From NCBI GenBank assembly GCA_965223705.1, contig OZ245015.1:1280001-1344000 (forward strand): a DNA stretch of 64,000 nt, written 5' to 3'. Source of the stretch: Myxococcota bacterium. GTDB lineage: Bacteria > Myxococcota_A > UBA9160 > UBA6930. Of this stretch, positions 1 to 24,330 are shown piece by piece. The notes below the pieces were generated by a model. The model worked only from the letters and a program-made list of their open reading frames with translations. It made no database searches and was not told the DNA's origin. The position numbers and the translations under genes are program-made. Positions within the stretch are counted from its first letter, which is position 1; each line of letters starts with the position of its first letter.

Positions 1-2007
1 TACTACTTGGCTTCCGTCGAGCCGGAATCCGAGATCGGCGCGTGGTTCGAGCCCGCAGCTCTCGAAGACGCTGCCCGGGCGCTCAAGCTTCGGCTCGCCG
101 GCCCCGCGGCGACGCTCGTTTCGAGGCTCGCTGGCGACGACCCGCTGCTCCTCTCGATGAAGCTCCTCGACCGACTCCGGGCGAGTGGCGCAGCGCTCGA
201 TCTTTCGGGCGGGCGCTTCGTCACCGCGGACCGCGACCGCTCCGTCCTCTTCGTCACGACGCGCGCTTCCGCTTACGACGCGCGTCGCCAGGGGCCGTTC
301 CTTCGAGATCTCGATGCACTGGGCGACTCCCTGCGCGAGCGTTTCGGCCCGAGCTCGAGTCTCGAGCTATCGGGCATTCACCCTTTCGCCGCCCATATCG
401 AGCGCGACATGCAACGGGACATGTGGAAGATCTCGCTCGTCTCGATGTTGGGGGTGGCCGCGGTATTCCTCCTCTTCTTTCGATCGCTGCGCGCACTGTT
501 CGTCTGCGCCCTTCCACACGTCGTCGGGGTGTTGGTGGCGCTGTCGATCGCAACGCTCGTCTTCGGAACGCTGACTCACTTGGCGTTGCTGTTCGCGATT
601 GCGCTCGCCGGAGTCTCGATCGACTACTCGATTCACTTGTTGAGTCACGTGGCGCTCCAGCGAGGGCCGCGATCCGACATGGGTTGGCTCCGCGGGTCGC
701 TCACGCTCGGCGCGGTGACCACCGTGGCGAGCTTCATCGGGCTCGGCCTCAGCACGTTTCCGGGTTTCGACCAGATGGGCTGGGTCGCCGCGGCCGGCGT
801 GGCCACGGCGCTCGTCGTGAGCGTCTTCGCCTTGCCTCCGATGCTCGCGGCGGCACGTCCGCGGGCGCGGGAAACGGTCCCGTCGGTTCTGTCGCGATGG
901 GTCGAAGGGTGTGCGTCTCGTCCGCGGCTTCTCCTCGGATTGTCGATCGGGCTGCTGGTCCTCGGGGCGGGCGCTTTCGGCGGGGTCCGCTGGGTCGACG
1001 ATGTCTCGGCGCTCACCAAGATCGACGCGGGCCTCCTCGCCGAAGACGCGTCGGTGCGGGACCGGATCCACCGCATCGACCTCTCTCGTTTCGTCATCGC
1101 GCGCGGAGCCGATCTCGAAGGCGCGCTGCAACGCAACGACGCTGCGGCGTCGACGCTTCGCGGCCTGGTGCGCGACGGCGCGCTCGGGGGGTTCGATTCG
1201 CTGCACACGTTCTTGTGGTCGGAAGATCTGCAGCAAAGGAACCTCCACGCGTTTCGCAGCGTCGAGGACGCGGGACGAAAGATCGACGAAGCCTTCGGAG
1301 CCGCCGGTTTTCGGTCCGGTGCTTTTCAGGGCTTTCGCGACACCCTCGCCGATCCGCCGCCGCCGATTCGCCTGGCGGACCTCGCGGGCACCGAAGCGGA
1401 ACCGTTGGCCGACACACAGCTCCTCGAACTTCCGGGCGGTGTCGCCGTCGTGACCTTTCTCCGCGAGATCCGAGATGTCGAAGCGCTCCGTGGGGCCATC
1501 GATGCACTTCCCGGCGTAGAGCTCTTTGATCACAAGACGTTCGTCGAAGGTATCTACGCCGAGTATCGCGAACGCATCGTCCGGATCATCGTGAGCGGCG
1601 TGTTCCTCGTCTTCGCGATCCTCTGGTTGCGCTATCGCCGTCTGCGATTCGCGATTGCGGCGATCAGCCCGTCACTCCTCACGGCCCTGGCGTTGGTCGT
1701 CCTCGCGGCGCTCTCGGGCACAGCCGTCCACTTGATTCACGTGTTGAGTCTCGTGCTGGTGATGGGCATGGGCGTCGACTACGGGATCTTCACCGTGGAC
1801 ACCGAGCGGGAGGAGCAGTCTCTCGGCACCACCCAGATGGGCTTGCTGGTCTCGTGCCTGACGACGCTGTTCGTGTTCGGAAGCCTCGCGCTCTCGAGCT
1901 ATCCCGCGCTGCGCGCGATGGGGCTGACGACGGGCATCGGACTGCTCTTCTCGTTTCTCTTTGCGCCGGTCGCCGTCGCACTGCTGCGAGTCCGCCGTCG
2001 TGCTTAG
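1..2007 (+). CDS. MMPL/RND family exporter (5'-truncated by window edge)
   Basis: Frame open from base 1; two hydrophobic TM blocks with GVSIDYSIH and GMGVDYGIF motifs typical of MMPL TM4/TM10. Confidence 0.85.
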   Translation, partial: YYLASVEPESEIGAWFEPAALEDAARALKLRLAGPAATLVSRLAGDDPLLLSMKLLDRLRASGAALDLSGGRFVTADRDRSVLFVTTRASAYDARRQGPFLRDLDALGDSLRERFGPSSSLELSGIHPFAAHIERDMQRDMWKISLVSMLGVAAVFLLFFRSLRALFVCALPHVVGVLVALSIATLVFGTLTHLALLFAIALAGVSIDYSIHLLSHVALQRGPRSDMGWLRGSLTLGAVTTVASFIGLGLSTFPGFDQMGWVAAAGVATALVVSVFALPPMLAAARPRARETVPSVLSRWVEGCASRPRLLLGLSIGLLVLGAGAFGGVRWVDDVSALTKIDAGLLAEDASVRDRIHRIDLSRFVIARGADLEGALQRNDAAASTLRGLVRDGALGGFDSLHTFLWSEDLQQRNLHAFRSVEDAGRKIDEAFGAAGFRSGAFQGFRDTLADPPPPIRLADLAGTEAEPLADTQLLELPGGVAVVTFLREIRDVEALRGAIDALPGVELFDHKTFVEGIYAEYRERIVRIIVSGVFLVFAILWLRYRRLRFAIAAISPSLLTALALVVLAALSGTAVHLIHVLSLVLVMGMGVDYGIFTVDTEREEQSLGTTQMGLLVSCLTTLFVFGSLALSSYPALRAMGLTTGIGLLFSFLFAPVAVALLRVRRRA

Positions 2008-3240: not shown

Positions 3241-4662
3241 TCACCAGCGCCGAATCTTGCCCGTCGGGGTTTGTGGCAGTGCGTCGACGAACTCGATCTT
3301 TCGCGGCGTTTTATAGGCGGGCAGGGACGCGCGACAAAGCTCAGTGAGCTCTTTGCGAAGCGTCGGCGGTGCGTCCGGTGCGACAACCTGCGCGACCGGG
3401 ATGGAACCCAAATGAGGATGCTCCTGGGCGGAAACGCGGCAACCTTCGACCGCGGCGTGAGACGCCAGAACCGCTTCGACCTCTTCCGCGAAGAATTTCA
3501 TGCCCGCCATACTGATGCGATTGCTGCGCCGGCCGACCAGGAAGAGGTCGCCATCGCCGTCGAAATACGCCTGATCGCCGGTTCGAAAACCGTCGGGCTC
3601 GAGAATCTCTTTGGCCCGGCACCAAGGCGACAGGTATGCATCGACGCAACCGTCGCCGCGAATGCACAGCTCACCGGTGTGTTCCGCCGAGCTCTTCTCG
3701 AGACGTCGGCCTTCGTCGTCGCGGAGCCAAACATCGTAGCCGGGCAGGGGGCGGCCCAGGGCTTCGGGTTTCGTCCCGGCACTCGCGAGATTGATCACCG
3801 GAAGCCCGACTTCGATGACGCCCAAAGCTTGGGTGATCGGGTGCTCGAAGCGCGCCTCGAACGAGCGCGCGGTGTCGGCGCGCAGGCCGTCTGCGGTGGA
3901 GATCGCGAGGCGGAGCGCGTCGAACGTGAACGTGCTGCTGTCTTTCGCGAGCCCCTGGTAGTGGTAGGGAGACGCGTAGAGCACCGTCGCGCCTGCGGCC
4001 GCGCCGGCTTCGAGCACGTGCCGGCTCAAGTGGCTCGCCGGAAAGACGACGGTCGCGCCGTAGCGCAGATAGAGAAGGATCGAGACCACGAAGTGGTGGG
4101 CGAGGGGCAGGGTCCACACGATGCGATCGTCGGTGTCGATCTCGAGGCCCCCATTCGCGAGGGCGGTGCGTTCGAGCACGGTCTGATGCCCCAGCACGAC
4201 GCCTTTCCGCGCGTTTGTGGTGCCCGACGTAAAGCGCAGGTAGGCCGGCTCGAGAGCGCGGAATTCGCGCTCGTCGAACGCGGCGCCTTGCACATGGGCG
4301 AGCGGGGCTTTCTGTAGGCCCGGGCTCGCGGACTCTCGCCACAGGAAGTGGAGCCGGGTCTCGGTGGCGGTCGGATCCCGCTCGAGAGGCCCACCGCCGT
4401 CGGGAATGGGTACGAGGCAACCGCCGGCCACGAGAATCCCCAACGCGGCTTCGACGAATTCCGGACCTTGAGGGGCGATGAGCCCGCAACGGTCGCCCGG
4501 TTGCACGCCCGCCGAAGACAACACCGCGGCGCGTCGTCGAACGGCGTCGCGAAGTGCGGCGTAGCTCACCGCGCGGACACTTCCGTCGGCGGCGTACTGC
4601 AAGAGCGCGGGGTGTGTCGGTCGCGCGTCGGCGTGCGCGAAAATCTCGTCTACGACGTTCAT
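3241..4662 (-). CDS. AMP-binding acyl-CoA/acyl-ACP ligase (ANL superfamily)
   Basis: FTSGTT P-loop, FRTGD, EVEAVL, LPQTPTGKI; start reassigned to ATG 4662 (MNVVDEIF). Confidence 0.88.
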   Translation of the reverse strand: MNVVDEIFAHADARPTHPALLQYAADGSVRAVSYAALRDAVRRRAAVLSSAGVQPGDRCGLIAPQGPEFVEAALGILVAGGCLVPIPDGGGPLERDPTATETRLHFLWRESASPGLQKAPLAHVQGAAFDEREFRALEPAYLRFTSGTTNARKGVVLGHQTVLERTALANGGLEIDTDDRIVWTLPLAHHFVVSILLYLRYGATVVFPASHLSRHVLEAGAAAGATVLYASPYHYQGLAKDSSTFTFDALRLAISTADGLRADTARSFEARFEHPITQALGVIEVGLPVINLASAGTKPEALGRPLPGYDVWLRDDEGRRLEKSSAEHTGELCIRGDGCVDAYLSPWCRAKEILEPDGFRTGDQAYFDGDGDLFLVGRRSNRISMAGMKFFAEEVEAVLASHAAVEGCRVSAQEHPHLGSIPVAQVVAPDAPPTLRKELTELCRASLPAYKTPRKIEFVDALPQTPTGKIRRW

Positions 4663-4666
4663 CGAC

Positions 4667-5932
4667 TCACCTGAGGGGCGCGCGAAAAGCGATGCGCTCG
4701 CGGATAGTAGCCGGCGAGATGTCGGCGAGCGATCGCCGGCTGCGCGCCGCGAGGGCTCCGGCGACGCCGATCGCCTCGCCGGTCGCGAGCGCCGTGCCCA
4801 CGACGCGGAGCGCTCCGTGGGCAACGTGGGTTGCCGACAAACAGCGCCCCGCCATGCCGAGCCGCGGGTGTGTGGCACTCACCAGCGCGCCCAGTGGAAC
4901 GGAACAAGCCGCGGTCGGGTAGCGGAGACGCACGCGACGATGATCCTCCCACAGCTCGATGGGCCAACCCGATCGTGCGACTTCGTCGTCGCGGCGCAGC
5001 CCGCCGAGGACGTCTTCTTCCGTCAGGTGTGCGAGGCCCCGCAGTCGCCGCGTCTCGCGGACGCCTACGTGAATCGGCCAGCCTGTCACCGACGCGTCGC
5101 GAAAATCTTCGCGCGTCGCGCGCAAGTACTCAACGATTTGCTCCGCCCATCGCTTCCCGGCGCTCGTGGCCTTGCGCCGCACGTCGCCGTCCGACAAGAG
5201 GGCGGGCGACTTGGGAAGGTTCAACGTGAGAAACGCCGCGCCCGGAGACACGCCGGGTCGAATCAGCACGGATTCGCATTCGCGCGGCAAGTCGCCGCGA
5301 CGCGCGGCGCCGGAGAGCCCGCGCGTCACCTTGAGCCGCGCAAACCCTTCGGTCGCGCTCGCGGGAACGCCGCCGAGCGCGACGATCAAGGAGCTCGCCT
5401 GGAGCTCCTCTTGCGGCGCGAGATCGGCTTCGGCCCCGCCTGCCGTAGCCGACACAGCGTCTCCGCTGGAATCGATGACCACCGCGGCGGAGAGGGTTTC
5501 ATCGCGGAGCTCGATGCGGGTGTCCGCGTCGTCCGAGGCGCCAAACGTCAGACCGCGCACGGGGTCCTGGGTTCGGATATCGACGCCGGCGGTCTTCTCG
5601 AGGACCGTCGATAGGTGGTCTCCAAAGGCCCGTGGGTCGATCGGAACGACGAAAACGCGGCCGACGCGTTCGGCCGGGAGCGCGCCGCCGCGTTCGAGCA
5701 GCGCTTCGGTCACTTCGCGCGCGAGGCCGTTTTGCAACCAAACGGGCGAATCCGACTCGGGTTCGAAGAGACCGCAGATCGTGTGGACCTGGGCGTTGGC
5801 GACGTTTCCCCCGAGCCGCGCTTCTCGCTCGAGGAGAACGACCGAAGCGCCCTCGCGCGCCGCAGCGAGAGCCGCCGCGCAGCCAGCCGGCCCACCGCCA
5901 ATGACCGCGACGTCGAAGCGCCCGCGGCTCAA
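4667..5932 (-). CDS. FAD-dependent oxidoreductase
   Basis: DVAVIGGGPAG, IDSSGDA, GVRETRR, AGRCLSA motifs. Confidence 0.85.
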   Translation of the reverse strand: MSRGRFDVAVIGGGPAGCAAALAAAREGASVVLLEREARLGGNVANAQVHTICGLFEPESDSPVWLQNGLAREVTEALLERGGALPAERVGRVFVVPIDPRAFGDHLSTVLEKTAGVDIRTQDPVRGLTFGASDDADTRIELRDETLSAAVVIDSSGDAVSATAGGAEADLAPQEELQASSLIVALGGVPASATEGFARLKVTRGLSGAARRGDLPRECESVLIRPGVSPGAAFLTLNLPKSPALLSDGDVRRKATSAGKRWAEQIVEYLRATREDFRDASVTGWPIHVGVRETRRLRGLAHLTEEDVLGGLRRDDEVARSGWPIELWEDHRRVRLRYPTAACSVPLGALVSATHPRLGMAGRCLSATHVAHGALRVVGTALATGEAIGVAGALAARSRRSLADISPATIRERIAFRAPLR

Positions 5933-10851: not shown

Positions 10852-12663
10852 TCAGTTCAGCAGGTAGCGCGTTTCGTCGGAAGGCGGCGCAAGCGCGTCC
10901 GCGAGCTCCGAGAGCGTAAACGGCTTGCGTAGATACGCGTCGTAGGAGCGCGGGTCGTTTCGCGAGCGGATATCGGCCTCTCCGACGCCGCTGAAGAGCA
11001 CGATGCGCATGGAAGGCACGGCGGCGCGCATGAGAACCGCAGTCGGCCCGCCGTCGAGACCGGGCATCATCGCGTCGATCAGGGCGCATTCAAAAGGCTG
11101 CTCTGCGCTCTTGACGAGCTCGATGGCCCGCTCTCCGCTGGTCGCGGTGGCGACTTCGTAGCCCAACTGGGTCGCCAGGATTCCCGTCGCTTCGAGCACG
11201 TCTTCGCGATCGTCGACAAGGAGGATCCGACGGGTTTCGCCGCGGAAGTGGGGATCGACCACCCGATCTCGAGACGCTGCGACCGGCTCCTGATCGTGCT
11301 CGGGTAGGTAGATCCGGAACTCGCTGCCCGCGTCGGGGAACGACTCGACTTCGAGGAGCCCCGACGCGCTCGAAACGATGCCCTGAACCGAGGAAAGCCC
11401 GAGGCCGCGGCCGTCGCCTTTGGTGGAAAAGAAGGGATCGAACATGCGCTCGAGAACGGCGCGGCTCATCCCCACGCCGTTGTCGCGGATCGTCAAGCAC
11501 ACGTGCGGGGTTTCGAGCGATACGGCGGCCGAGCCCACCGGCTCGACTTCGGTGCCCGGGGGCGCCACCCGCGTGGAGACAACGATCTCGCCGTCGTTGG
11601 GTCCCACCGCTTCCCGAGCGTTGGAGATCAGGTTGAGCAGGAGCTGCCGGATCCGATTGACGTCCGCAAAAACCGGCCCGATGCGCTCGCTCAAGTTGAA
11701 GCGAAGTTCCGAGCGCCGCGAAGTCGCGGCCTCGAGGAGGGGATAGGTCTCGCGGATCAACGCATTCAGGTCCGCGGGCCGCACCATGAGCGCACGGCCG
11801 CCGACGTAGGTGAGGAGCTGCTCGCACAGCGCAGCAGCCTGCTCCGACGCGCCCGAGATCGCTTTCGCCGATTCGAGGATCTTCGGATCGGCCTCGGTCT
11901 GTAAGCCGATCCGCTCGGCGTGGGCCAGGATGACCGACAGCAGGTTGTTGAAATCGTGTGCGACGCCGCCCGCCAAGACGCCGAGGCTCTCAAACTTCTG
12001 AGCTCGCAGCGCCCCTTCGATCGCCATGCGTCGGCGGCTCGCCAACGTGTAGAAATGCCAGGCGACGCGGTTTCTCGCCAAGTAGAAGCCGGTTCCGAAG
12101 AACGCGAAGGTCAGCGTGATCCACACGGCCGCGGCGTCGACCGGCCGCCCCGAGGCATAGAGCGAGATGCCGAAGAAGGTCGCCTGGGTTGCGCAAGCCA
12201 GGAAGATCCACTTGGGCTCGGCGAAGAAGACACAGGTGCCGAGGGCGACCATGGCAAAGGCCGCGGAAACATACGGATCGGGGACGGTTGCCAAGTGAAG
12301 CGCCGTCCCGACCGCGCCCCACAACGTGACGAGGTACGCCGCCCGGTGAGCCGCCCCTTCGGTCAACGGGTTTTGTCGCCAATAGATCCCCGCCCCGAGC
12401 GTCGCCACGAAGCTGCCGACGCACCAGAGGACGAGCCGCCCGCTGCCCGCAACGTCGCGCAAGAGCCAGAAGCCGATGGCGAAGACGTAGAACGCGGCCA
12501 TCAAGAAGCAGATGTTCGGAAGCCCGGCCCCCAATGCCCGTGACACAACACGACGCATGGCGGGCTTGAGGACGAAGATTTCGCTCAAGCTCGGCGAACT
12601 TTCGGAGATAGCGCGCTCAAAATTGGCGGCGCTGTCTGCGGAAGAAGACCACGAAGAGGTCAC
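10852..12663 (-). CDS. Membrane hybrid sensor histidine kinase/response regulator
   Basis: N-terminal TMs; GGVAHDFNNLL H-box, NLISNAREA, DNGVGM, FDPFFSTK, GRGLGL; C-terminal receiver (LLVDD, D, KPF); start could be 12558. Confidence 0.9.
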   Translation of the reverse strand: MTSSWSSSADSAANFERAISESSPSLSEIFVLKPAMRRVVSRALGAGLPNICFLMAAFYVFAIGFWLLRDVAGSGRLVLWCVGSFVATLGAGIYWRQNPLTEGAAHRAAYLVTLWGAVGTALHLATVPDPYVSAAFAMVALGTCVFFAEPKWIFLACATQATFFGISLYASGRPVDAAAVWITLTFAFFGTGFYLARNRVAWHFYTLASRRRMAIEGALRAQKFESLGVLAGGVAHDFNNLLSVILAHAERIGLQTEADPKILESAKAISGASEQAAALCEQLLTYVGGRALMVRPADLNALIRETYPLLEAATSRRSELRFNLSERIGPVFADVNRIRQLLLNLISNAREAVGPNDGEIVVSTRVAPPGTEVEPVGSAAVSLETPHVCLTIRDNGVGMSRAVLERMFDPFFSTKGDGRGLGLSSVQGIVSSASGLLEVESFPDAGSEFRIYLPEHDQEPVAASRDRVVDPHFRGETRRILLVDDREDVLEATGILATQLGYEVATATSGERAIELVKSAEQPFECALIDAMMPGLDGGPTAVLMRAAVPSMRIVLFSGVGEADIRSRNDPRSYDAYLRKPFTLSELADALAPPSDETRYLLN

Positions 12664-14444: not shown

Positions 14445-16448
14445 CTAGCGCCCCGAGAGGGTCTTGTGCCGGCGTTCGATCTCGAGGAAAAGCCGCTCGA
14501 AGCGCTCGCGGCTCTCTTTGCTGAAGATGCTCTGCGGGTTGCGGCCGGCGATGCGCAGCAGGAGCCGCGCCGGGCGTGTGCGCTGGAAGCGGATGCTGAG
14601 CTTCGCCAGGGCCTGCTCGTAGCGCGCGACGAAGCGCGGCACCGAGGTGTCCGGCTCGAGCTCTCGGCCGTCGAGCTCTTTCTGGTACGCGAAGCGCACG
14701 AACCGGTCGTAGACCGCCTCGTCAAACAAGTCTTCGACGTCGGCCGCCGCCTGCTCGTTTTCGGGGAAGCCGCAGCCCACCTGCACGATGTGCGGGTTCG
14801 CTTCGAGGCCGGCCTCGGAGATCTCGTCCATCCACTCTTCGTCGATCTCGTTGACGAGAATCACCGAGCGCTTGAGGCCATCACCCACGATCGACGTCCA
14901 CACCGGCAGCGCAAACGCGCCGCCCGAAGGCGTGACCACCAGGTCGCGGGGCAGGGCGGGCCGGCCCTTCTCGGCCAAATAATCGGAAACCGCCTGCAAG
15001 TACCAGAAATCGCTCATCGATTCGACGATGAGGCGCGGCGCGTCGCCGAAGAGCTTCTTCGCGACCTCGCTCTCGCCCCCGCCCGCCAGCGTGACGGGCG
15101 GCGTATCGAAGCCTTCGGGCTCGCCTTCGCGGACGATCGTGCCGAGCTCGGCGTCGATCTCCGTCACCCGCACGGCGCCGTCGTCATCGTCCGGAATGAG
15201 GAACGGCGACTGCGTCGTCAGGATGATCTGGTTCTCGAAGTCTTCGCGCAGGTGGCGCAGCAAATCGCGCTGGCCGTTTTCGTGGAGGCACGTGCCCGGC
15301 CCGTCGAGGAGCAGCACCGCGTCTTTCGTGCTGCCCTCTTTCGCGCCCGCCGCGAACATCACCCAGAAGGAGAAGAACCAGCGGAAGCCGCGGCTCCGCT
15401 GATCGAGGTTGACCTCGACGTCGCAGAACGCCGTCGGGTCGGAGATGATCGTGTTGAAGTGCTTGCCGTCGAGATCGAACCGCACCTTGAGCGGGCGATC
15501 CGTCCACAGCTCGCGCAGGCGGCGCGTCATCGCGGCGCTGGCGCGCCCCACCATCTGGCGCCGCACGTCCGGCTCGCCGTTCAGCAGCGTTTCGAGATCT
15601 TCCGTCGTAATGCCCGACATCGATAGCAGCATGCGGAAGTAGTGCTCTTTCGCTTCGAGCTGCCCGTCGCGGAGCTTCGTGACGAACTGCGCCAGATCCT
15701 GGCGCCCGTCGATCTCGGGGAACGTGTCCAAGTAGAGGAGCCGCGGCAGGTGATCGCGCACCCACTGGGCCGCCACCGCTTCGTCATCTTCTTCCATCGA
15801 GCAACTGGCCGCGAGATCCATCAGCTCTTGCAGGGCCGCGCGCGTCTCGTCGTCGACCACCACATCGCCGCGCCCCACCGGCTCTTGCACCGCCGAAAGC
15901 GCTTCGGCCACGCCGCGCCCCCAGTCATCGGCCGGCGCGTTGTGCAGGGCCGTCGCGTGGTGCAAGCGATGAAGCGCTTCTTGCCACGCCTGGTAGGACT
16001 GCTGGTCCGCACCCGCCACCTGCGCCGTGCGCACGTGCTCGAGGATCTCTTTCGCGCGCTCGACCGGCGGGCCCGCGGCTCCGCCGCCTTCGCCAATGTT
16101 CACGCGAAGCCCTGCGTTGTAACCGCGCGACACTTCCACCTGGGCGAGATCGCGGCCCGGTGCATACACCTCGGCCAGCGCCTCGCGCTCGTGATCTTCG
16201 AGCGCCCAGACCGCGCGGACGACCGGGTCGTTCTCCGCGTGATCCGTGCTCGCGAGGTCGGCGGGGAAATCGCGCGTCAACGCGAGCGGCTGAGCCACCA
16301 TCTCGCGATCGAGCATCCGCAAGGCCTGTAGGAGGTTCGTCTTACCCGCTTCGTTGCGCCCAACGAACGCCGTCAAATCGCCGACCGAGACCCAGCCCGA
16401 ATCCTTGACGCTGCGGAAGTTGGTGACGCGGAATTTTTCGAGCTTCAT
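14445..16448 (-). CDS. OLD-family ABC-type ATPase with TOPRIM-like C-terminus; catalytic motifs degenerate
   Basis: NFRSV, Walker A GRNEAGKT, signature RSRGFRWFFSF, Walker B variant LLLDGP, H-loop variant TTQSP, LIVES..D. Confidence 0.75.
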   Translation of the reverse strand: MKLEKFRVTNFRSVKDSGWVSVGDLTAFVGRNEAGKTNLLQALRMLDREMVAQPLALTRDFPADLASTDHAENDPVVRAVWALEDHEREALAEVYAPGRDLAQVEVSRGYNAGLRVNIGEGGGAAGPPVERAKEILEHVRTAQVAGADQQSYQAWQEALHRLHHATALHNAPADDWGRGVAEALSAVQEPVGRGDVVVDDETRAALQELMDLAASCSMEEDDEAVAAQWVRDHLPRLLYLDTFPEIDGRQDLAQFVTKLRDGQLEAKEHYFRMLLSMSGITTEDLETLLNGEPDVRRQMVGRASAAMTRRLRELWTDRPLKVRFDLDGKHFNTIISDPTAFCDVEVNLDQRSRGFRWFFSFWVMFAAGAKEGSTKDAVLLLDGPGTCLHENGQRDLLRHLREDFENQIILTTQSPFLIPDDDDGAVRVTEIDAELGTIVREGEPEGFDTPPVTLAGGGESEVAKKLFGDAPRLIVESMSDFWYLQAVSDYLAEKGRPALPRDLVVTPSGGAFALPVWTSIVGDGLKRSVILVNEIDEEWMDEISEAGLEANPHIVQVGCGFPENEQAAADVEDLFDEAVYDRFVRFAYQKELDGRELEPDTSVPRFVARYEQALAKLSIRFQRTRPARLLLRIAGRNPQSIFSKESRERFERLFLEIERRHKTLSGR

Positions 16449-16584
16449 ATTTCCCCGCGGGTATTCAGTTCTCCCGGCTCGGTATTTCTACTCGGAAAAT
16501 CGAGCGCAGGAGTTGAGTCATCAACGTCTTTTTCCACGAATTTCCCCGACCGAACGTCGGCCCGGGAGCACGTAGAATGTCCCT

Positions 16585-17130
16585 ATGCACACAGTCCTTG
16601 TTGTGGACGACAGTCCTTCGGCGCGACGGCTGATCGAAGATCGCCTCGCCACAAACGGCCTTGATGTTTGTCCGGCGAGCGACGGACACGAAGCGCTCGA
16701 ATTAATTGCAGAAAGGCATTTCGATCTGATCGTTACTGACCAGCGTATGCCTGGGATTGACGGCCTTAGCCTGGTGGAGCGGGTCCGAACCTTCTCCGCC
16801 GTGCCGATTGTCGTGCTTACCGCCTATCCGACCGTCGAAAAATGTGAGCGAGCGCTTTTGCTAGGTGCTTCGCGATATTTGGACTTGCGCAACCTAGATC
16901 AGCTACCCGTCGTCGCCACGGAGTTGATCGACGGCACTTCGGAGCCTGCTGTGATCGAAGTCGCCCCTGTCACCGTGTCGAGTTCTCGGAAGGCGCGAGA
17001 CGAGGAACTACGCAGCACACTGGAGCGACTGCTCAGAAGGACCCGCGGAAACATAAGCCAAGTAGCGGTATTCCTAAACAAAGACAGGACGACCGTTCTT
17101 TACCACCTGAGGCGACTTGGCCTTTACTAG
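16585..17130 (+). CDS. Response regulator (receiver + Fis-type HTH, no AAA+ domain)
   Basis: VLVVDD, TDQRMPGIDG, VLTAY; C-terminal RGNISQVAVFLNKDRTTVLYHL. Confidence 0.85.
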   Translation: MHTVLVVDDSPSARRLIEDRLATNGLDVCPASDGHEALELIAERHFDLIVTDQRMPGIDGLSLVERVRTFSAVPIVVLTAYPTVEKCERALLLGASRYLDLRNLDQLPVVATELIDGTSEPAVIEVAPVTVSSSRKARDEELRSTLERLLRRTRGNISQVAVFLNKDRTTVLYHLRRLGLY

Positions 17131-20100
17131 CCTTCTGAGATGGGAGGTGGCACGGCATGGGGTTTTATTGGCGGCGCCTCTAGCATCGCTCTTATTCCTC
17201 ACAGTGGAGACGGGTTTCGTCGGGGTTATGGGGAAATCCCATGGAGATGTTCAGTCATTAAAGAATGACCTAGACACTTACGGTCGCGGATACTCGATTG
17301 TTGCAATGACCGCGCGGACCGACACCAGCAGTGCGCGCGCAGAGCCTTTGCGCGAGGAACTTTCATCACTGGCCGGTGTTTCCGAGGTCACGTTGATCGA
17401 GTCGGCTGCGAACATTGGCTTCCTCATCGAGTTGTCCAACCTCGATCAAGCGGATAGCACGATCTCACATATCGAGACGGTTGGGTCGGAGGTCGGGCTG
17501 CTCTTGTCTGGAACACCGGCAGAATTCGCTATGGCCGGTCGAGAAATAACCGAGATCGGCACGCGGCTTACCGGCGCATTGATCATCGTCGTCCTGGGTG
17601 TCGGGGCCGCGTCTCTTGGGCGGCTCTCCGCACTGGCGATGCTAGCTTGGACTTGCGTCGTTGGCGTTCTCTGGTCGATTGCCGGTTTAGTGTTCGTCGG
17701 ATCTAGCTGGAACGAAGTTTCTCACCTTGGCCCCGTGCTAGTCCTGTGTTTTCTGGTTCCGACCGGTTTCATCTGCCTTCGGTCCGGTCCGGGAGACACC
17801 CACCAGTTTGTTCCTCGCATTAAGGCTCTGTCAGCCGCCTTCGTCATTTGCCTGGCTACCTTTTTTCTCGTCTCTCCACTTGAAGGTTTTCGGTCCGCGG
17901 GCCTCGCGAGCGTGGTCGGAGTTTCATCCGGCCTGTTGGCCTTGGATGCGCGCCGCAGGTTTCGAGGAGAGTTTCGCGATTGGCTTCCTAGTCAGCCCCG
18001 TTCCGGACTACTCGTGGTCGGAGCTTTGGGATTGATCGCTCTCCTGTTTTTCTCTGGGAGAGGGCTGCAAAGTTTCGAGGTTGAGATCGACAAGCTGAGA
18101 CTGATCGGCGAACACACCTCTGTCGCAAGGAATACTGCGACCATCCATGACGCGCTGGGTTTTAGCGAGGTCGCGCACTTTGTGTCCCTAGATAACGGGA
18201 GAGCCGAGTTCTCTTATCGCCTAGTACATGTTCCTCGACAGGGAGACAGGCGAGAGTTTTTGGAGCCTCGTCGAACTGAAGATCTGGGAGTACCCAGTGG
18301 GGCATTTCCTATCTATACGCGGCTAGTGGATGAAGTCGTTTCATCAAGCCGTCTAGTTGCGCTGGGCGCGATTGTCGTCACGTTGGCGTTCGTACCCCTT
18401 CTCCTATGGGGCAAAACGGCTAGCGGGGCTGACCGAGTTGTCCCCGGTGTTTCGATCTTTTTGCCGTTGGCCGCCGGAATAGGTGCATGCGTCGGAGCTT
18501 TGTCACTACTCGGCGGACGAATCGATGTGGGGAGCATGTGGGCCGTGTTCTTGACGGCCGTCTACGCTGGCTTCGGGGCATCGGCTCTCGCAGTGGCTCG
18601 TGATACCTCCACGACTCGCTGTTGTGTGCAAGGACTAACCGAGTCCGGACTAGTGCTGGGCTTCGGGTTCCTCGCTTTCGCGGCGAGCCCGTGGAGAACT
18701 GTTGCGGAGGCTGGGCTCGTCACCGCAGCAGGGGTTGCAGGAACTTCGGTTTCGTTTCTCCTCATTGCCGAGACCTGCTTGGGCACTCGCGGCTCGAACC
18801 TAAAGCGGGCTCGAAGCTTCACGATCGTGATCTTGTTGATTGCTGCGTTCATCGCGGGATTCAAGACCGCGACAGTTGATCCTCAGGTTGTTTGGGAGAA
18901 ATTGACTGGTTTGGGTGCGGTCTTGGTTGCGACCGGGTTGTGGCAGGTGCTGGTTGCACTCAGGACCCCGAGGTCGCAGCATAGTCCGGTCTTAGTCGGG
19001 ATAGGGGGCCTCACTATCTGCGGGGCCGTTCTGCCGGGCTATTTCGTGGCAATTGGTGTGGCCTTCCTCGCTGTGGTCTCGCTGCGCAGATACGCTCCAA
19101 CAGCTCGCGGTGGAGCCAGTTGGGTGCTCATGGCGTGCGTTGCTATCACGTACACCGCTGAGGCCTCGAATGGAGAGAGTTCGGGGCTTATTACTTCACT
19201 GGCAGTCAGCCTGGGCGCACTAGCGTTTATGGCCGGTCAGGTCGAAGAACTGATCCACGGCAAACCGGTATTTCTCCGCGGGCAGGTCATCGTCTCTACA
19301 TTGCTAGCCCTAGCCCCATTGGTCGTATGCGCCGCCGTGCCTCGAATGGATAGCGAGACAGCGTTTCTCGCCGCTGCGGCGCCTGGACTGGGACTCGGTT
19401 TCTCGACTTTGACGTCCGCATGGCGTCGAGGTGGAGAGGGCTTTGAACTCGCTGTTGGTGTAGCCGGAGCGTTCCTTGCGGCGCTCGCTAGTTCCGCACT
19501 CTTGATTGAGTCATCTCCGGCTACCGAACCACTCCTGTCCGCTCTCGCGCCTTTCCTCGCCGTTTTTGGAGGTCTTGCGATATGGCTCCTGCTAAGGCCA
19601 GGTTTTCCCACAGTTTCAGATCAAGTTTCGAATGCCCGGGAGCGCTACTTGGAATCGACAGCGGCCTTGGTCGAGGATCGAGATTTAGCGCTTGCGGCAG
19701 AACAAATCTGCGGAGATCTGATCGGGTATCCAGTATGCGTCGATGTATCACAATGGAAGGCAACTCTCTCAACGTCCGCTGTTGCAGCGGCTGTTGAGGC
19801 CAACGTTGGGAACCTCCAAGCACGGTTAACGGTAGAGGCCCAAAAAGAGCTATCCGCGCTTCAGCGACGTCTATGTAAGTGCGTTTTGGCGGAATGCCTT
19901 AGGAGAATCCAGGCGAGCCGCGCATGCGAAGAGGCTGTCCGCAGCCAGTCCGATACCGCAATTCATGCGCTCACTGAAAGACACGACCTAAGGAAGGCGT
20001 TGCTTGTCGCGGCCGCTTATCTCGAGTCCGACGAGCAAACTCCGGATCGGGTACTTAGAGCAAGGGAGGCAGTCGAGGAGTCTCTAAGATTGGTGGACTA

Positions 20101-20554
20101 CGACGGCAACTTGCCCTTTTTTGAGATGCACGAGCTGCCCTTATCTGTCTTCGTCGCAAGACTCAATCGATTGATGGGGGAGAGGATCCGGCGCGAGACC
20201 GTTACCAGAATAAAATGCGATCCAGATCATACGCTCCTGCCAGAACTTCTCGTCTGGGCAGTTTTGAACCTCGTTGACAACGCCCACGCCGCATACCCGT
20301 CCCACGCGGTTGTGTTGGAATTCGAGAACAACACGAGAGGCCTAGTTATTCGGGTGAAGGATGACGGCAGGGGGATCGCGTCTCGCGTTATCACGAAGAT
20401 TGGACGTGTACTCTTTTCCACACGAAAGAGCTCCGGAGGTACAGGAATTGGTTTGTCAGGGACGCATTCGAAGGTGGCTCGATGTGGAGGAGTGCTCACA
20501 GTGAACTCGGTCGAAGGACAGGGGACGACCGCCGAAATCGTACTGCAAGCGTAA
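17117..20554 (+). CDS. Degenerate MMPL/RND-like membrane domain fused to a membrane histidine kinase
   Basis: Single 1145-aa ORF; MMPL-like repeats (LSGTPA.., GFGFLAFAASPWRTVAEAGLV); H-box HDLRK, N-box NLVDNA, G1 DDGRGI, FSTRK, G2 GTGIGL. Confidence 0.7.
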   Translation: MAFTSLLRWEVARHGVLLAAPLASLLFLTVETGFVGVMGKSHGDVQSLKNDLDTYGRGYSIVAMTARTDTSSARAEPLREELSSLAGVSEVTLIESAANIGFLIELSNLDQADSTISHIETVGSEVGLLLSGTPAEFAMAGREITEIGTRLTGALIIVVLGVGAASLGRLSALAMLAWTCVVGVLWSIAGLVFVGSSWNEVSHLGPVLVLCFLVPTGFICLRSGPGDTHQFVPRIKALSAAFVICLATFFLVSPLEGFRSAGLASVVGVSSGLLALDARRRFRGEFRDWLPSQPRSGLLVVGALGLIALLFFSGRGLQSFEVEIDKLRLIGEHTSVARNTATIHDALGFSEVAHFVSLDNGRAEFSYRLVHVPRQGDRREFLEPRRTEDLGVPSGAFPIYTRLVDEVVSSSRLVALGAIVVTLAFVPLLLWGKTASGADRVVPGVSIFLPLAAGIGACVGALSLLGGRIDVGSMWAVFLTAVYAGFGASALAVARDTSTTRCCVQGLTESGLVLGFGFLAFAASPWRTVAEAGLVTAAGVAGTSVSFLLIAETCLGTRGSNLKRARSFTIVILLIAAFIAGFKTATVDPQVVWEKLTGLGAVLVATGLWQVLVALRTPRSQHSPVLVGIGGLTICGAVLPGYFVAIGVAFLAVVSLRRYAPTARGGASWVLMACVAITYTAEASNGESSGLITSLAVSLGALAFMAGQVEELIHGKPVFLRGQVIVSTLLALAPLVVCAAVPRMDSETAFLAAAAPGLGLGFSTLTSAWRRGGEGFELAVGVAGAFLAALASSALLIESSPATEPLLSALAPFLAVFGGLAIWLLLRPGFPTVSDQVSNARERYLESTAALVEDRDLALAAEQICGDLIGYPVCVDVSQWKATLSTSAVAAAVEANVGNLQARLTVEAQKELSALQRRLCKCVLAECLRRIQASRACEEAVRSQSDTAIHALTERHDLRKALLVAAAYLESDEQTPDRVLRAREAVEESLRLVDYDGNLPFFEMHELPLSVFVARLNRLMGERIRRETVTRIKCDPDHTLLPELLVWAVLNLVDNAHAAYPSHAVVLEFENNTRGLVIRVKDDGRGIASRVITKIGRVLFSTRKSSGGTGIGLSGTHSKVARCGGVLTVNSVEGQGTTAEIVLQA

Positions 20555-20610
20555 TGTCTCCACGAAATTCCAGGTTGTGGTCGCCTGAAAGGTGGAACTA
20601 GTTTCGAGGG

Positions 20611-21540
20611 ATGGAAGACCATCTTTGCTCAGGCTCACTAGCAGCTTTCGCCCGCCAGGTCGCAAATTTCGAGATACCGGTGTTGATAACTGGAGAGACC
20701 GGAACTGGAAAGACAACAGCCGCCCAGTCTATTCACAGGCTCTCTGATCGCTCCCACGAGCGTTTCATCCACATAAACTGCGCAAGTATCCCTGAGCAGC
20801 TTGTCGAGGCAGAACTCTTCGGGGTCGAGCGCGGCGCGTTTACCGGGGCAACGGGATCGAGGGCTGGACACCTGGAAATTGCAGGATCCGGGACGATTCT
20901 GTTTGACGAAATAGGGGAGATCTCTCTCCCTGTTCAGGCGAAGCTCCTCCGAGTTCTCGAAGAGGGTGAGTTTGAACGACTGGGCAGCACCCGAACTCGT
21001 CGTTTCTCGGCTCGTGTCATCTCGGCGACTAGTAGAGATTTGAGCAGCGCGATTCAGCGGCGGGAGTTCCGTTCGGATCTGTACTACCGCCTTGCCGGAG
21101 CGGAGGTTGCGTTGCCTCCTCTTCGAGAGAGGCCGGAGGATATAAGGCGCATCGCGCAGTCGGTTTGGGACGCTATGTCGAAACGCTACGGTCGGGCAAA
21201 GGAGGGAGTTCCCGAAGCTGTTATGGCCCAACTCACGTCGTCGGCGTGGCCGGGAAATATTAGAGAGCTGAAGTCGGCCGTTTACCGCGCATTTATCGGC
21301 TTAGATCCCGTTCGCCGCACCGGACCGGCGGGTCACTCGGAGCTAGATGAGCTGTGTGAGGCACTTGCGGCAGCGAGAGGCAATGTTTCACTCGCGGCTC
21401 GCAAGTTGGGAGTTGCGAGAAGCACTTTGAGGTATCGAATGATGAGCTACGGCCTTGACCGAGAGACTTTCCGGCCGGCCGGCCGCTTCACCACCAGGCG
21501 AACGGCCCAGTTCAAAGCGTCTCACCAAGCTTCCGAATAA
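20611..21540 (+). CDS. Sigma-54 enhancer-binding protein (AAA+ and Fis HTH) without N-terminal regulatory domain
   Basis: GETGTGKT, ELFG..RGAFTGA, LFDEIGE, FRSDLYYRL, WPGNIREL, GNVSLAARKLG. Confidence 0.92.
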   Translation: MEDHLCSGSLAAFARQVANFEIPVLITGETGTGKTTAAQSIHRLSDRSHERFIHINCASIPEQLVEAELFGVERGAFTGATGSRAGHLEIAGSGTILFDEIGEISLPVQAKLLRVLEEGEFERLGSTRTRRFSARVISATSRDLSSAIQRREFRSDLYYRLAGAEVALPPLRERPEDIRRIAQSVWDAMSKRYGRAKEGVPEAVMAQLTSSAWPGNIRELKSAVYRAFIGLDPVRRTGPAGHSELDELCEALAAARGNVSLAARKLGVARSTLRYRMMSYGLDRETFRPAGRFTTRRTAQFKASHQASE

Positions 21541-21937
21541 TCTCACCCCAGCCGCCGTTGTAACTATCCCGGCTTTCCTCAGCATCGAACGCTTCGTGGG
21601 TAAGCGTCAGCTCGGTCTCATCCATCCCGTGCGGCGCGAGTTCGACCGTCACGACGGTCTCCTTCCCTTGCAGCATGTCCGAGCGCCAGGTCATCACGAG
21701 CTTGTTCGGCGGATCGATCTCGATGTATTCGCCTTCTTGCACGTATACACCTTCGCCGTGCATGGCGATGCGCCACTTGCCGCCGACGCGCACGTCGAGG
21801 GTGGCTTCGGCGTGGGTCATGGTGTCGGTGGGGCAGAACCAGGCGCGCATGCCCTCGGCGTCGGTCCACGCATCGAACACGGCCTGAGGCGGCGCGGGAA
21901 GGACGCGCGTGAGTCGGAGGAAGGGTTCCTTAGGCAT
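21512..21937 (-). CDS. SRPBCC/AHSA1-like protein
   Basis: APPQAVFDAWTD, DVRVGG, GW..I..L; ATG overlaps the ArsR end. Confidence 0.88.
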   Translation of the reverse strand: MPKEPFLRLTRVLPAPPQAVFDAWTDAEGMRAWFCPTDTMTHAEATLDVRVGGKWRIAMHGEGVYVQEGEYIEIDPPNKLVMTWRSDMLQGKETVVTVELAPHGMDETELTLTHEAFDAEESRDSYNGGWGEIIRKLGETL

Positions 21938-23694: not shown

Positions 23695-24330
23695 CTAGAG
23701 CGGGCTCGCGGCGCCCACATACTGGTACCGGACGAGCGAGACGCCGGGGATCGGCGGCGGACGATCGAGATCGACGCCGCTCGACTGCTCGACCTTGAAG
23801 CCCGTCCGGGCGAGAAGCTCCGGCGGGTTCCGCGTGAGCTGGCAGCCGCCGAAGGCCGCGGCCCACGGCCGGGCGAACCGTTGCTGCCAGCGCTGGCGAC
23901 TGAGGGTTGGCGCGAGCCCGTGCTCGGCGAAGAGAAGCTGCCCGTCGGGCTTGAGCACACGCCGCATCTCTCCGAGCGCGCGTTCGACGTCGGGGATCGT
24001 GCACAGCGTGTACGCGACGACGATGGTGTCGACGCTTCGGTCGTCGAGGGGGATCTCCTCACCGCGGAGCGGCACGTGCTCGATGGGGAAGCTCATCTCG
24101 GCTTCGCGCTTCGCCGCGAGCGAGAACGCGCCGCTCGCCGGATCGAGGGCCACCAGCTCGTCGACACGAGCGCTGTCGTACCAGGGCAGGTTCGTGCCGC
24201 TGCCGTAACCGACTTCGAGCACGCGCCCGCGCGCTTCGGGCACCACTTTCGCGCGCTGCTCCGAGAACGCGCGGTGGCCGCAAATGTGATCGATGATGCG
24301 GGGGAGGATGTGGTTTTCGTAGAAGTTCAT
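23695..24330 (-). CDS. Class I SAM-dependent methyltransferase
   Basis: VLEVGYGSG, YTLCTIPD, RRVLKPDG, GGCQLTR. Confidence 0.9.
   Translation of the reverse strand: MNFYENHILPRIIDHICGHRAFSEQRAKVVPEARGRVLEVGYGSGTNLPWYDSARVDELVALDPASGAFSLAAKREAEMSFPIEHVPLRGEEIPLDDRSVDTIVVAYTLCTIPDVERALGEMRRVLKPDGQLLFAEHGLAPTLSRQRWQQRFARPWAAAFGGCQLTRNPPELLARTGFKVEQSSGVDLDRPPPIPGVSLVRYQYVGAASPL

Follow-up and report, generated by a model that had tools for sequence, protein, structure and literature searches.

A 64,000-nucleotide stretch of a Myxococcota bacterium genome (GenBank assembly GCA_965223705.1, contig OZ245015.1, positions 1,280,001 to 1,344,000; hereafter the window) carries a fusion gene, P0001 (17117..20554, forward strand), whose 1145-aa product combines a relay-less MMPL-like module, an extra transmembrane (TM) module, a GAF-like linker, and the DHp and catalytic ATP-binding (CA) regions of a predicted histidine kinase. 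On balance, we favour the view that P0001 serves as sensor kinase in a three-gene cassette of horizontal origin and that its receptor derives from a disabled MMPL exporter domain. A sequence-only reading of the window had proposed that an exporter scaffold was repurposed here as a sensor, and this proposal stood in part: RND/MMPL descent (hhalign E 8.5e-12), the absence of the TM10 relay from P0001 and its relative P0003 and of the TM4 relay from P0001, and a genuine kinase fusion all speak for it, and the sensing role itself is judged probable, with the reservations weighed below.

Integrity and domain layout of the fusion gene

P0001 is an intact, single open frame of 1145 codons with a TTG start (17117-20554, +), as had been claimed, and no sign was found of a lost stop codon or of a fusion made by the assembly, which the same reading had named as a risk. 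A contig of 15,953 nt from a second sample covers positions 16500-21574 of the window without any indel and differs by just one substitution (T>C at 19736), corresponding to Cys874Arg; the locus is thus present in the public assemblies of two samples. In addition, P0003, a 927-aa protein from a metagenome contig of 3,488 bp, follows P0001 colinearly from aa 245 up to its C-terminal end (E 2e-97, 31% identical across 921 aa), and the alignment crosses the junction at aa 555-565; P0003 has no equivalent of P0001 aa 1-244, its sequence beginning after TM4. Because the second-sample contig has no indel and P0003 is colinear across the junction, P0001 is a true fusion to a complete kinase and not an assembly artefact. 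A contig of 261 nt from another study's metagenome run is identical to window positions 19908-20168 in the kinase gene, so that the organism or the cassette is also found elsewhere.

The public gene call for P0001 gives a protein of 1082 aa starting at M64, which would lose TM1 and a conserved motif behind it. This motif, 'ETGF..MG.SH..VQSL', lies within the segment 17117-17306 that the public call omits and aligns with 'TE.GYR..LG.AHP.VQRL' of the canonical fusions described below. The homology to the canonical fusions begins at aa 24-25 (hhalign), so the start of P0001 should be TTG 17117 or GTG 17147, not M64. The TTG start overlaps the stop of the upstream regulator gene by 14 nt.

Hydropathy places TM1 at aa 16-38, followed by a loop of ~110 aa and a TM bundle extending to ~aa 285, and, in the second repeat, a TM at aa 296-318, a loop of ~90 aa, and then, at aa 413-552, another TM bundle. 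This profile follows the RND/MMPL plan of 12 TMs in two repeats with an extracytoplasmic loop after the first helix of each, and, together with the pairing of repeat on repeat by hhalign, it bears out the two-repeat MMPL layout that had been read into the first ~555 aa. Repeat 1 (aa 1-290; 17117..17986, +; hhalign) comprises TM1, periplasmic loop 1 of ~110 aa, and TM2-6, and repeat 2 (aa 291-560; 17987..18796, +; hhalign and BLASTP) comprises TM7, periplasmic loop 2 of ~90 aa, and TM8-12, both loops being roughly half the canonical size. An extra polytopic module of no known family follows (aa 561-835; 18797..19621, +), recognised by hydropathy from ~8 further TMs at aa 562-828 and kept in P0003; Pfam gave no match for it, and an Atlas search with aa 556-950 returned nothing above 0.83. 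The remainder is a cytoplasmic tail of ~315 aa, which starts with a linker (aa 836-940; 19622..19936, +) that is possibly a degenerate GAF domain. No Pfam GAF match was obtained in P0001; the linker aligns weakly with the region that holds GAF in the canonical fusions (hhalign P 0.11), and Pfam GAF is present at the equivalent place in the canonical member from genome G223.

Regarding the kinase core, the DHp region (19937..20236, +) contains the H-box 'RHDLRKAL' with the putative phospho-acceptor His956 (codon 19982-19984). The Pfam HisKA model did not match P0001, and the H-box is in register in all seven aligned proteins (P0001 and six other fusion kinases). The HATPase_c domain, or CA (20237..20554, stop codon included, +; PF02518, E 1e-14), is the only Pfam/NCBIfam match on P0001 and carries the N ('VLNLVDNA', 1049), G1 ('DDGRG', 1082), F ('LFST', 1099), and G2 ('GGTGIGL', 1107) boxes; these and the H-box are conserved in P0003. 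The CA also aligns with that of the canonical fusions with a probability of 99.6% (hhalign E 3.2e-24). Both the additional TMs and the complete kinase core noticed at first sight were therefore located, and, judged by its motifs, the core of this predicted histidine kinase is complete.

Relationship to MMPL proteins and to the canonical fusion kinases

Three of the 19 long relatives of the bridging MMPL contain HATPase_c, namely P0137 (1553 aa, found on 18 contigs), P0138 (1565 aa), and P0142 (1103 aa). Full-length genes resembling P0137 occur in at least four of the 301 sampled genomes of the phylum (G050, G315, G223, and G305), all of them from the window's order, a count that is a lower bound from a stricter first look among the 150 matches listed, 202 more lying beyond them. 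The canonical fusions (P0137, P0138, and the genes in G315, G305, and G223) are ~1550-1570 aa long and are true MMPLs, with PF03176 at E 1e-33 to 1e-39 plus the Patched-SSD (sterol-sensing domain) and Sterol-sensing models; the G223 member, for example, shows two MMPL matches, Patched-SSD, GAF, and HATPase_c. The canonical profile consisted of these five fusion proteins, and L015 (G192) was excluded from the family alignment, as it lacks a kinase and carries its MMPL domain C-terminally. The P0001/P0003 pair aligns with this profile with a probability of 99.8% (hhalign E 3.8e-28) over 1093 columns, positions 25-1143 on 30-1554. Full-length fused homologues, which the sequence-only reading had advised looking for, are thus at hand in the canonical fusions, which are colinear over their whole length, next to P0003, which is colinear from aa 245 on, and on this comparison P0001 represents a reduced branch of an MMPL-TM-GAF-kinase family that recurs and has an intact relay. 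The architecture had been described as uncharacterised; no publication on it was found, but it is not a one-off, given the recurrent relay-intact family.

The same comparison was resolved by module. Residues 1-560 match the MMPL module of the canonical fusions with a probability of 97.5% (hhalign E 8.5e-12, 504 columns); repeat 1 alone reaches 94.5% (E 8.1e-8; aa 24-274 on 29-355 of the P0137 family) and repeat 2 reaches 81.4% (E 1.2e-5; aa 394-549 on 582-742), the pairing being in register, each repeat on its own counterpart. Mismatched pairs of modules served as negative controls, and all 18 of them gave P >= 0.036 and probabilities <= 1.4%. Because the module matches are in register and the mismatched controls clean, we regard the MMPL-like module of P0001 as homologous to true MMPL domains, that is, as a highly diverged MMPL/RND domain.

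Other searches gave weaker signals. BLASTP aligned repeat 1 (aa 26-338) with P0137 31-435 (E 0.02), and a six-frame search of 60 related genomes returned three weak matches, all to MMPL/Patched-SSD genes and in register at the second repeat, the best of which, a plain MMPL, reached a BLASTP E of 4e-7 over aa 330-556. Against the 121 members of the bridging MMPL family, the real best BLAST score was 39.7 bits and was reached by none of 200 segment-shuffled decoys, whose best scores had a mean of 26.3 +/- 2.5 and a maximum of 35.4. A profile of MMPLs from the same genome (n=13) aligned with P0001 colinearly and over the full length, if weakly (hhalign P 0.0074, probability 5%). BLASTP between the two halves of the P0001 module was not significant (E 0.88), with the best pair at equivalent positions, and Atlas features, taken as a lead only, put aa 1-560 beside MMPL/SSD clusters (score 0.94). 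The resemblance of aa 1-560 to the fusion family far exceeds that to plain MMPLs, which argues for the descent of P0001 from an already fused ancestor.

Direct searches for further members of the reduced lineage recovered little. A word-indexed search with the whole of P0001 found itself only, an exhaustive HMMER search of 1.84 billion cluster representatives with aa 1-840 found itself and P0003 only, and the P0001+P0003 pair alignment scanned over genome contigs gave no match. Likewise, four pieces of P0001 compared by phmmer with all open reading frames (ORFs) of its own genome gave none below E 0.1, a genome-wide PF03176 scan missed the P0001 ORF, and a PDB sequence search with aa 1-840 returned chance matches only (E 2.2). 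Diverged RND domains like that of P0001 are missed by family libraries, and in this case the public gene call even loses TM1.

The fold of aa 1-560 had been singled out for a structural check, in which RND descent was supported by hhalign as above and the predicted structure proved compatible with an RND fold, which is not proof of it. An AlphaFold2 (AF2) model of aa 1-560 with P0003 and 44 MMPL rows in the alignment had a predicted local distance difference test (pLDDT) score of 55 and a predicted template modelling (pTM) score of 0.55; pLDDT was 62-89 in the TM2-6 bundle and 67-88 in TM11-12, and below 50 in TM1, TM7, and both loops. Foldseek placed MmpL5, MmpL4, and MmpL3 on top for this MMPL-guided model (E 2e-4 and up). 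In a wide VIA-align search, the top 22 matches all belonged to the RND superfamily (Z 12-22, up to 21.9), among them MmpL5/3, CusA, AcrB, SecDF, HpnN, NPC1/NCR1, PTCH1, and Dispatched; SSD-only proteins came next (Z 8-10), and unrelated helical proteins had Z <= 8.

Some other arrangements of MMPL-type domains were encountered as well. P0142 (a cluster of 5) is an MMPL-kinase fusion without the extra TM module, with the H-box 'AHEINTPL' and 'GVDYSIY' in its MMPL part, and in P0130 (1064 aa) an MMPL/Sterol-sensing protein is joined to a cyclic-nucleotide-binding domain (PF00027). The L015 ORF of G192 (L015:202-5232, +) encodes 1676 aa with a C-terminal MMPL/Patched-SSD region (aa 968-1238), no kinase, and no family match over its N-terminal ~960 aa.

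Loss of the relay and reduction of the periplasmic loops

MmpL/HpnN-type proteins are proton-driven exporters with Asp-Tyr relay pairs. In the canonical fusions, the relay residues D281/H284 and D666/D667/H670 are invariant in all five members. In P0001, the profile alignment puts 'LVPT-FICL' opposite the canonical TM4 motif 'GVCDSMHF', so that Asp and His are replaced, and 'GFGA' followed by a deletion opposite the canonical TM10 motif 'GIAVDDSVHL', so that 'VDD..H' is absent; in the BLASTP alignment with a plain MMPL, 'AVFLTAVY' of P0001 stands opposite 'AVDDTIHY'. No acidic residue is found in the TM4- and TM10-equivalent helices of P0001, and its only loose match to the relay motif, 'GPGDTHQ' at aa 224-230, falls in a cytoplasmic loop. 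P0003 likewise lacks the TM10 relay residues, and its sequence begins after TM4. The sequence-only reading had noted this absence by comparison with an MMPL at window positions 1-2007 (+), the 3' part of a 784-aa gene, and the contrast is confirmed: the relay is intact there, as 'GVSIDYSIHLL'. In total, 19 ORFs of MMPL type were extracted from the genome of the window, which has at least 17 such genes.

The second difference from the canonical fusions concerns the periplasmic loops, in both of which P0001 shows large deletions that remove about half of each. Framework motifs of the helices are kept in the profile alignment, where 'GALSLLGGRIDVGSMW' of P0001 falls on 'GAMGLVGVALDTGTSM', 'SGLVLGFGFLAFAASPW' on 'SSLALSLGFLSLLLSSW', and 'FLVSPLEGFRSAGLASVVG' on 'FVVSDLASFMRFGLAASVG'. 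Taken from these alignments, the P0001 module has kept the 12-TM framework and lost the TM4/TM10 relay and about half of each loop.

The three-gene cassette and its surroundings

P0001 is the middle one of three co-directional genes, encoding a REC-HTH (helix-turn-helix) regulator, the kinase, and a REC-less activator. The cassette, of ~5.3 kb, coincides in the composition profiles with a low-GC island (16450..21800) with 55-60% GC against 65-70% in the flanks. A P0001 query found no match in two genomes of the same genus, which are 87% and 75% complete, and none in 30 further genomes from the family. The low-GC composition, together with this absence from close relatives, suggests that the cassette was horizontally acquired as a unit.

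The first gene (16585..17130, +) encodes a response regulator of 181 aa with a REC domain (aa 4-99; Response_reg, E 1.8e-23), in which DD 8-9 and D52 in 'LIVTDQRMPG' are present, and a C-terminal Fis-type HTH (HTH_8, E 4.8e-4). It is 33% identical end to end, the terminal HTH included, to a REC protein of G050 (E 3e-24). The third gene, P0004 (20611..21540, +), encodes a REC-less sigma-54 activator of 309 aa composed of AAA+ (Sigma54_activat, E 1.1e-60), an AAA lid, and HTH_8, with both Walker A ('GETGTGKT') and GAFTGA intact. P0004 is colinear with the enhancer-binding protein (EBP)-like neighbours of canonical fusions in G050 (L016:4112-5050, -; E 5e-14) and G223 (L018:12428-13507, +; E 3e-11), which have a degenerate Walker A ('GDSASER' and 'GEPGCGR' as the counterparts) and no GAFTGA. 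Together, the REC-HTH_8 protein and the REC-less activator resemble an NtrC-type regulator whose parts are encoded separately. The rpoN gene for sigma-54 is encoded in the genome of the window.

The canonical loci share some of these partners and add others. In G050, one strand carries a REC protein, a type III polyketide synthase (PKS), the fusion kinase, a LolA-like protein, and a 312-aa EBP-like protein. Across the four canonical loci, a LolA-like gene after the MMPL-kinase gene is present in three (G050, G315, and G223), a type III PKS gene before it in two (G050 and G315), an EBP-like gene in two (G050 and G223), and a REC gene in one (G050); at the G305 locus, none of PKS, LolA-like, EBP-like, or REC was seen among the ORFs scanned. 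The G315 contig is only 11 kb long, and small ORFs at the canonical loci were scanned in part. Because of the PKS and LolA-like neighbours, the canonical loci suggest a polyketide-derived (phenolic) lipid as the cargo or signal of these fusions, exported or sensed. Methyltransferases were also observed near the canonical fusions in G315 and G223.

Directly upstream of the cassette, at 14445-16448 (-), lies a gene for a 667-aa OLD/GajA/AriA/PtuA-like ATPase (AAA_15/AAA_21; PADLOC AriA, E 4.5e-15), which by its family matches is a possible defence gene at the border of the island. Five small neighbouring ORFs had no match in PADLOC, and no tRNA was found at 8-30 kb of the window. Further upstream, a few kb from the cassette, a 603-aa hybrid histidine kinase with HATPase_c and REC is encoded at 10852-12663 (-), and an AMP-binding enzyme at 3241-4878 (-). 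Past the cassette, the segment 21455-23621 contains ORFs of 193 aa (+) and of 281 and 432 aa (-) without a family match, followed by a methyltransferase at 23695-24330 (-).

Proposed function and alternative explanations

In the favoured explanation, the input module of P0001 would descend from the MMPL domain of fused MMPL-TM-GAF-kinases of the same bacterial order and, having no TM4/TM10 relay, would be unable to power export by proton flow. It may rather bind or respond to a hydrophobic molecule of the envelope, and the resulting conformational change would reach the DHp region through the ~8-TM module and, behind it, the GAF-like linker. His956 would then autophosphorylate and hand its phosphoryl group to the presumed partner, the translationally coupled REC-HTH regulator, at Asp52; together with the REC-less sigma-54 activator, this regulator would set the transcription of a regulon.

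We also offer, more tentatively, the idea that the relay-intact fusions and the relay-less P0001 form a before-and-after pair, in which a kinase-wired RND exporter was turned into a pure membrane receptor. In that case, the ancestral exporter probably handled a phenolic lipid made by the type III PKS, with the LolA-like protein as carrier. If true, prokaryotes would offer a counterpart to what happened in eukaryotes, where RND scaffolds became sterol-sensing domains, and RND-type input domains would constitute a new class of two-component sensor.

A number of observations weigh against a receptor derived from a disabled exporter. No match to PF03176, PF02460, PF12349, or PF00873 was obtained, either with the whole of P0001 (E<=1) or with aa 1-560 (E<=10), and comparisons with plain MMPLs were marginal, both with a profile of 30 of them (hhalign E 0.04) and in a decoy test of the plain-MMPL hidden Markov model (8/500 for P0001 and 142/500 for P0003). 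Outside the MMPL and CA modules, the extra-TM module against its canonical counterpart (hhalign P 0.37, probability 0.2%) and the linker against the canonical pre-CA region (P 0.11, probability 0.5%) gave no significant similarity. On the structural side, AF2 failed to fold the full protein from a two-row alignment (mean pLDDT 37), and the RND-like model is biased by the MMPL rows in its alignment. The lineage has two members only among 1.84 billion representatives, which leaves the arguments from conservation thin. Around the window cassette, no PKS or LolA-like gene was seen among the ORFs scanned, and sigma-54 promoters, searched with a consensus pattern, were not enriched near it (37 sites against 46.8 expected). 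Finally, some RND relatives might couple differently.

This last point leads to the possibility that P0001 is still a working transporter-kinase, or 'transceptor', which uses other coupling residues or passive flipping and whose kinase reports flux, as the relay-intact canonical fusions may do. In the parent family the relay is kept (D281/H284 and D666/D667/H670 in 5/5), the LolA-like carrier gene at three of the four canonical loci suggests real export there, and P0001 itself retains Asp470 of the conserved 'IDVG' and a charged E31 in TM1. However, the relay has been lost in the reduced lineage, at both sites in P0001 and at TM10 in P0003, which begins after TM4; the periplasmic loops of P0001 are halved, and no carrier or biosynthesis gene was seen among the scanned cassette ORFs. 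We consider continued transport unlikely. Alternatively, the relay-less module could be a partner or flux sensor that associates with one of the active MMPL exporters of the genome, or with a periplasmic carrier, and reports how active it is, much as BceS-type kinases read the activity of their ABC transporter. With at least 17 MMPL-type genes in the genome, candidate partners are not lacking, RND proteins do oligomerise, and the conserved motifs belong to the framework of the TM bundle and not to the substrate and relay parts; nonetheless, no partner gene is linked to P0001, and a cassette that looks horizontally acquired fits a self-contained sensor better, which makes this role rather doubtful.

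Decay would be another account, with P0001 as a functionless remnant of a canonical MMPL-kinase gene on an acquired island, and the extreme divergence, the partial deletion of both loops, the lost relay, the atypical GC content, and the mere two known members would all agree with it. It is nevertheless improbable, given that the frame of 1145 codons is uninterrupted, that two sequences just 31% identical share invariant kinase boxes and many framework residues, and that the gene is coupled to an intact response regulator and to an activator in which both Walker A and GAFTGA are preserved. Even less credible is an unrelated polytopic sensor in the N-terminal half that resembles RND proteins through hydrophobic composition. 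The absence of a Pfam match, the lack of phmmer matches to the MMPLs of the same genome below E 0.1, and the marginal plain-MMPL profile could be read in this way, but the hhalign match (E 8.5e-12, 504 columns in register, clean controls), the decoys (0/200), the short motifs shared at equivalent helices, and a homology that is colinear over the rest of the protein and both neighbouring genes could hardly be so.

Comparison with known systems

The closest relatives of P0001, the canonical fusions, have the same module order, the H-box in register, and homologous REC-HTH and REC-less EBP-like neighbours. In contrast to P0001, they match the Pfam MMPL model, keep the relay, and possess periplasmic loops of roughly double the length; similarity between their extra-TM module and that of P0001 is undetectable, their EBP-like partners are degenerate, and their loci add type III PKS (2/4) and LolA-like (3/4) genes. 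MmpL3, MmpL4, MmpL5, and HpnN share the 12-TM two-repeat plan with P0001 and are the best matches of the biased model (Z 16-22), but they have no kinase, whereas P0001 has no relay and has shorter loops.

Among the eukaryotic RND relatives, PTCH1, NPC1, DISP1, and NCR1 matched the same biased model with Z 17-19, and the SSDs of SCAP and HMGCR with Z 8-10. Patched, NPC1, Dispatched, and the SSDs belong to the same superfamily and have the idea of lipid sensing in common with P0001, whose output, unlike theirs, is a fused kinase and whose module has no Pfam match. The sequence-only reading had likened P0001 to Patched, and this analogy fits more poorly than the others. Patched is thought to retain an active ion-coupled relay, and NPC1 likewise keeps its relay; because of the former, a transport-inactive sensor such as the SSDs of SCAP/HMGCR, or the Amt-kinase Ks-Amt5, is the better analogy.

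Transporter folds that act as receptors of a fused enzyme are known from Ks-Amt5 (Amt plus histidine kinase) and Sd-Amt1 (Amt plus diguanylate cyclase) (PMC5764959, PMC11152129). These two differ from P0001 in belonging to another transporter superfamily and in having ammonium as the ligand. No SLC5/STAC or Amt Pfam family was found on P0001, and the likeness is functional only. Another histidine kinase, CbrA, signals to a sigma-54 activator. CbrA and CrbS are SLC5-STAC histidine kinases ('transceptors') with transporter and kinase in one chain (PMC7096432, PMC13022988, PMC5715377), and CbrA is reported to still transport histidine (PMC7096432). They combine the SLC5 fold with STAC/PAS linkers, whereas the domain of P0001 is of the RND type and appears disabled.

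By this analogy, P0001 would belong to a known kind of protein, the transporter-derived sensor kinases (Amt, SLC5), functionally alike and from a different superfamily. A literature search turned up no account of a histidine kinase joined to an MMPL, RND, or SSD domain; domain-architecture databases may list such proteins. What is new, on the sequence comparisons, is the relay-less reduced lineage, its descent from relay-intact fusions, and the shared partnership with a REC-HTH protein and a REC-less activator. These fusions provide a built-in comparison between relay-intact relatives beside lipid-making or lipid-carrying genes and a relay-less form alone with its regulators, which makes tractable the route from exporter to sensor, the conformational changes of RND proteins that signal, and the role of the paired REC-HTH protein and REC-less activator.

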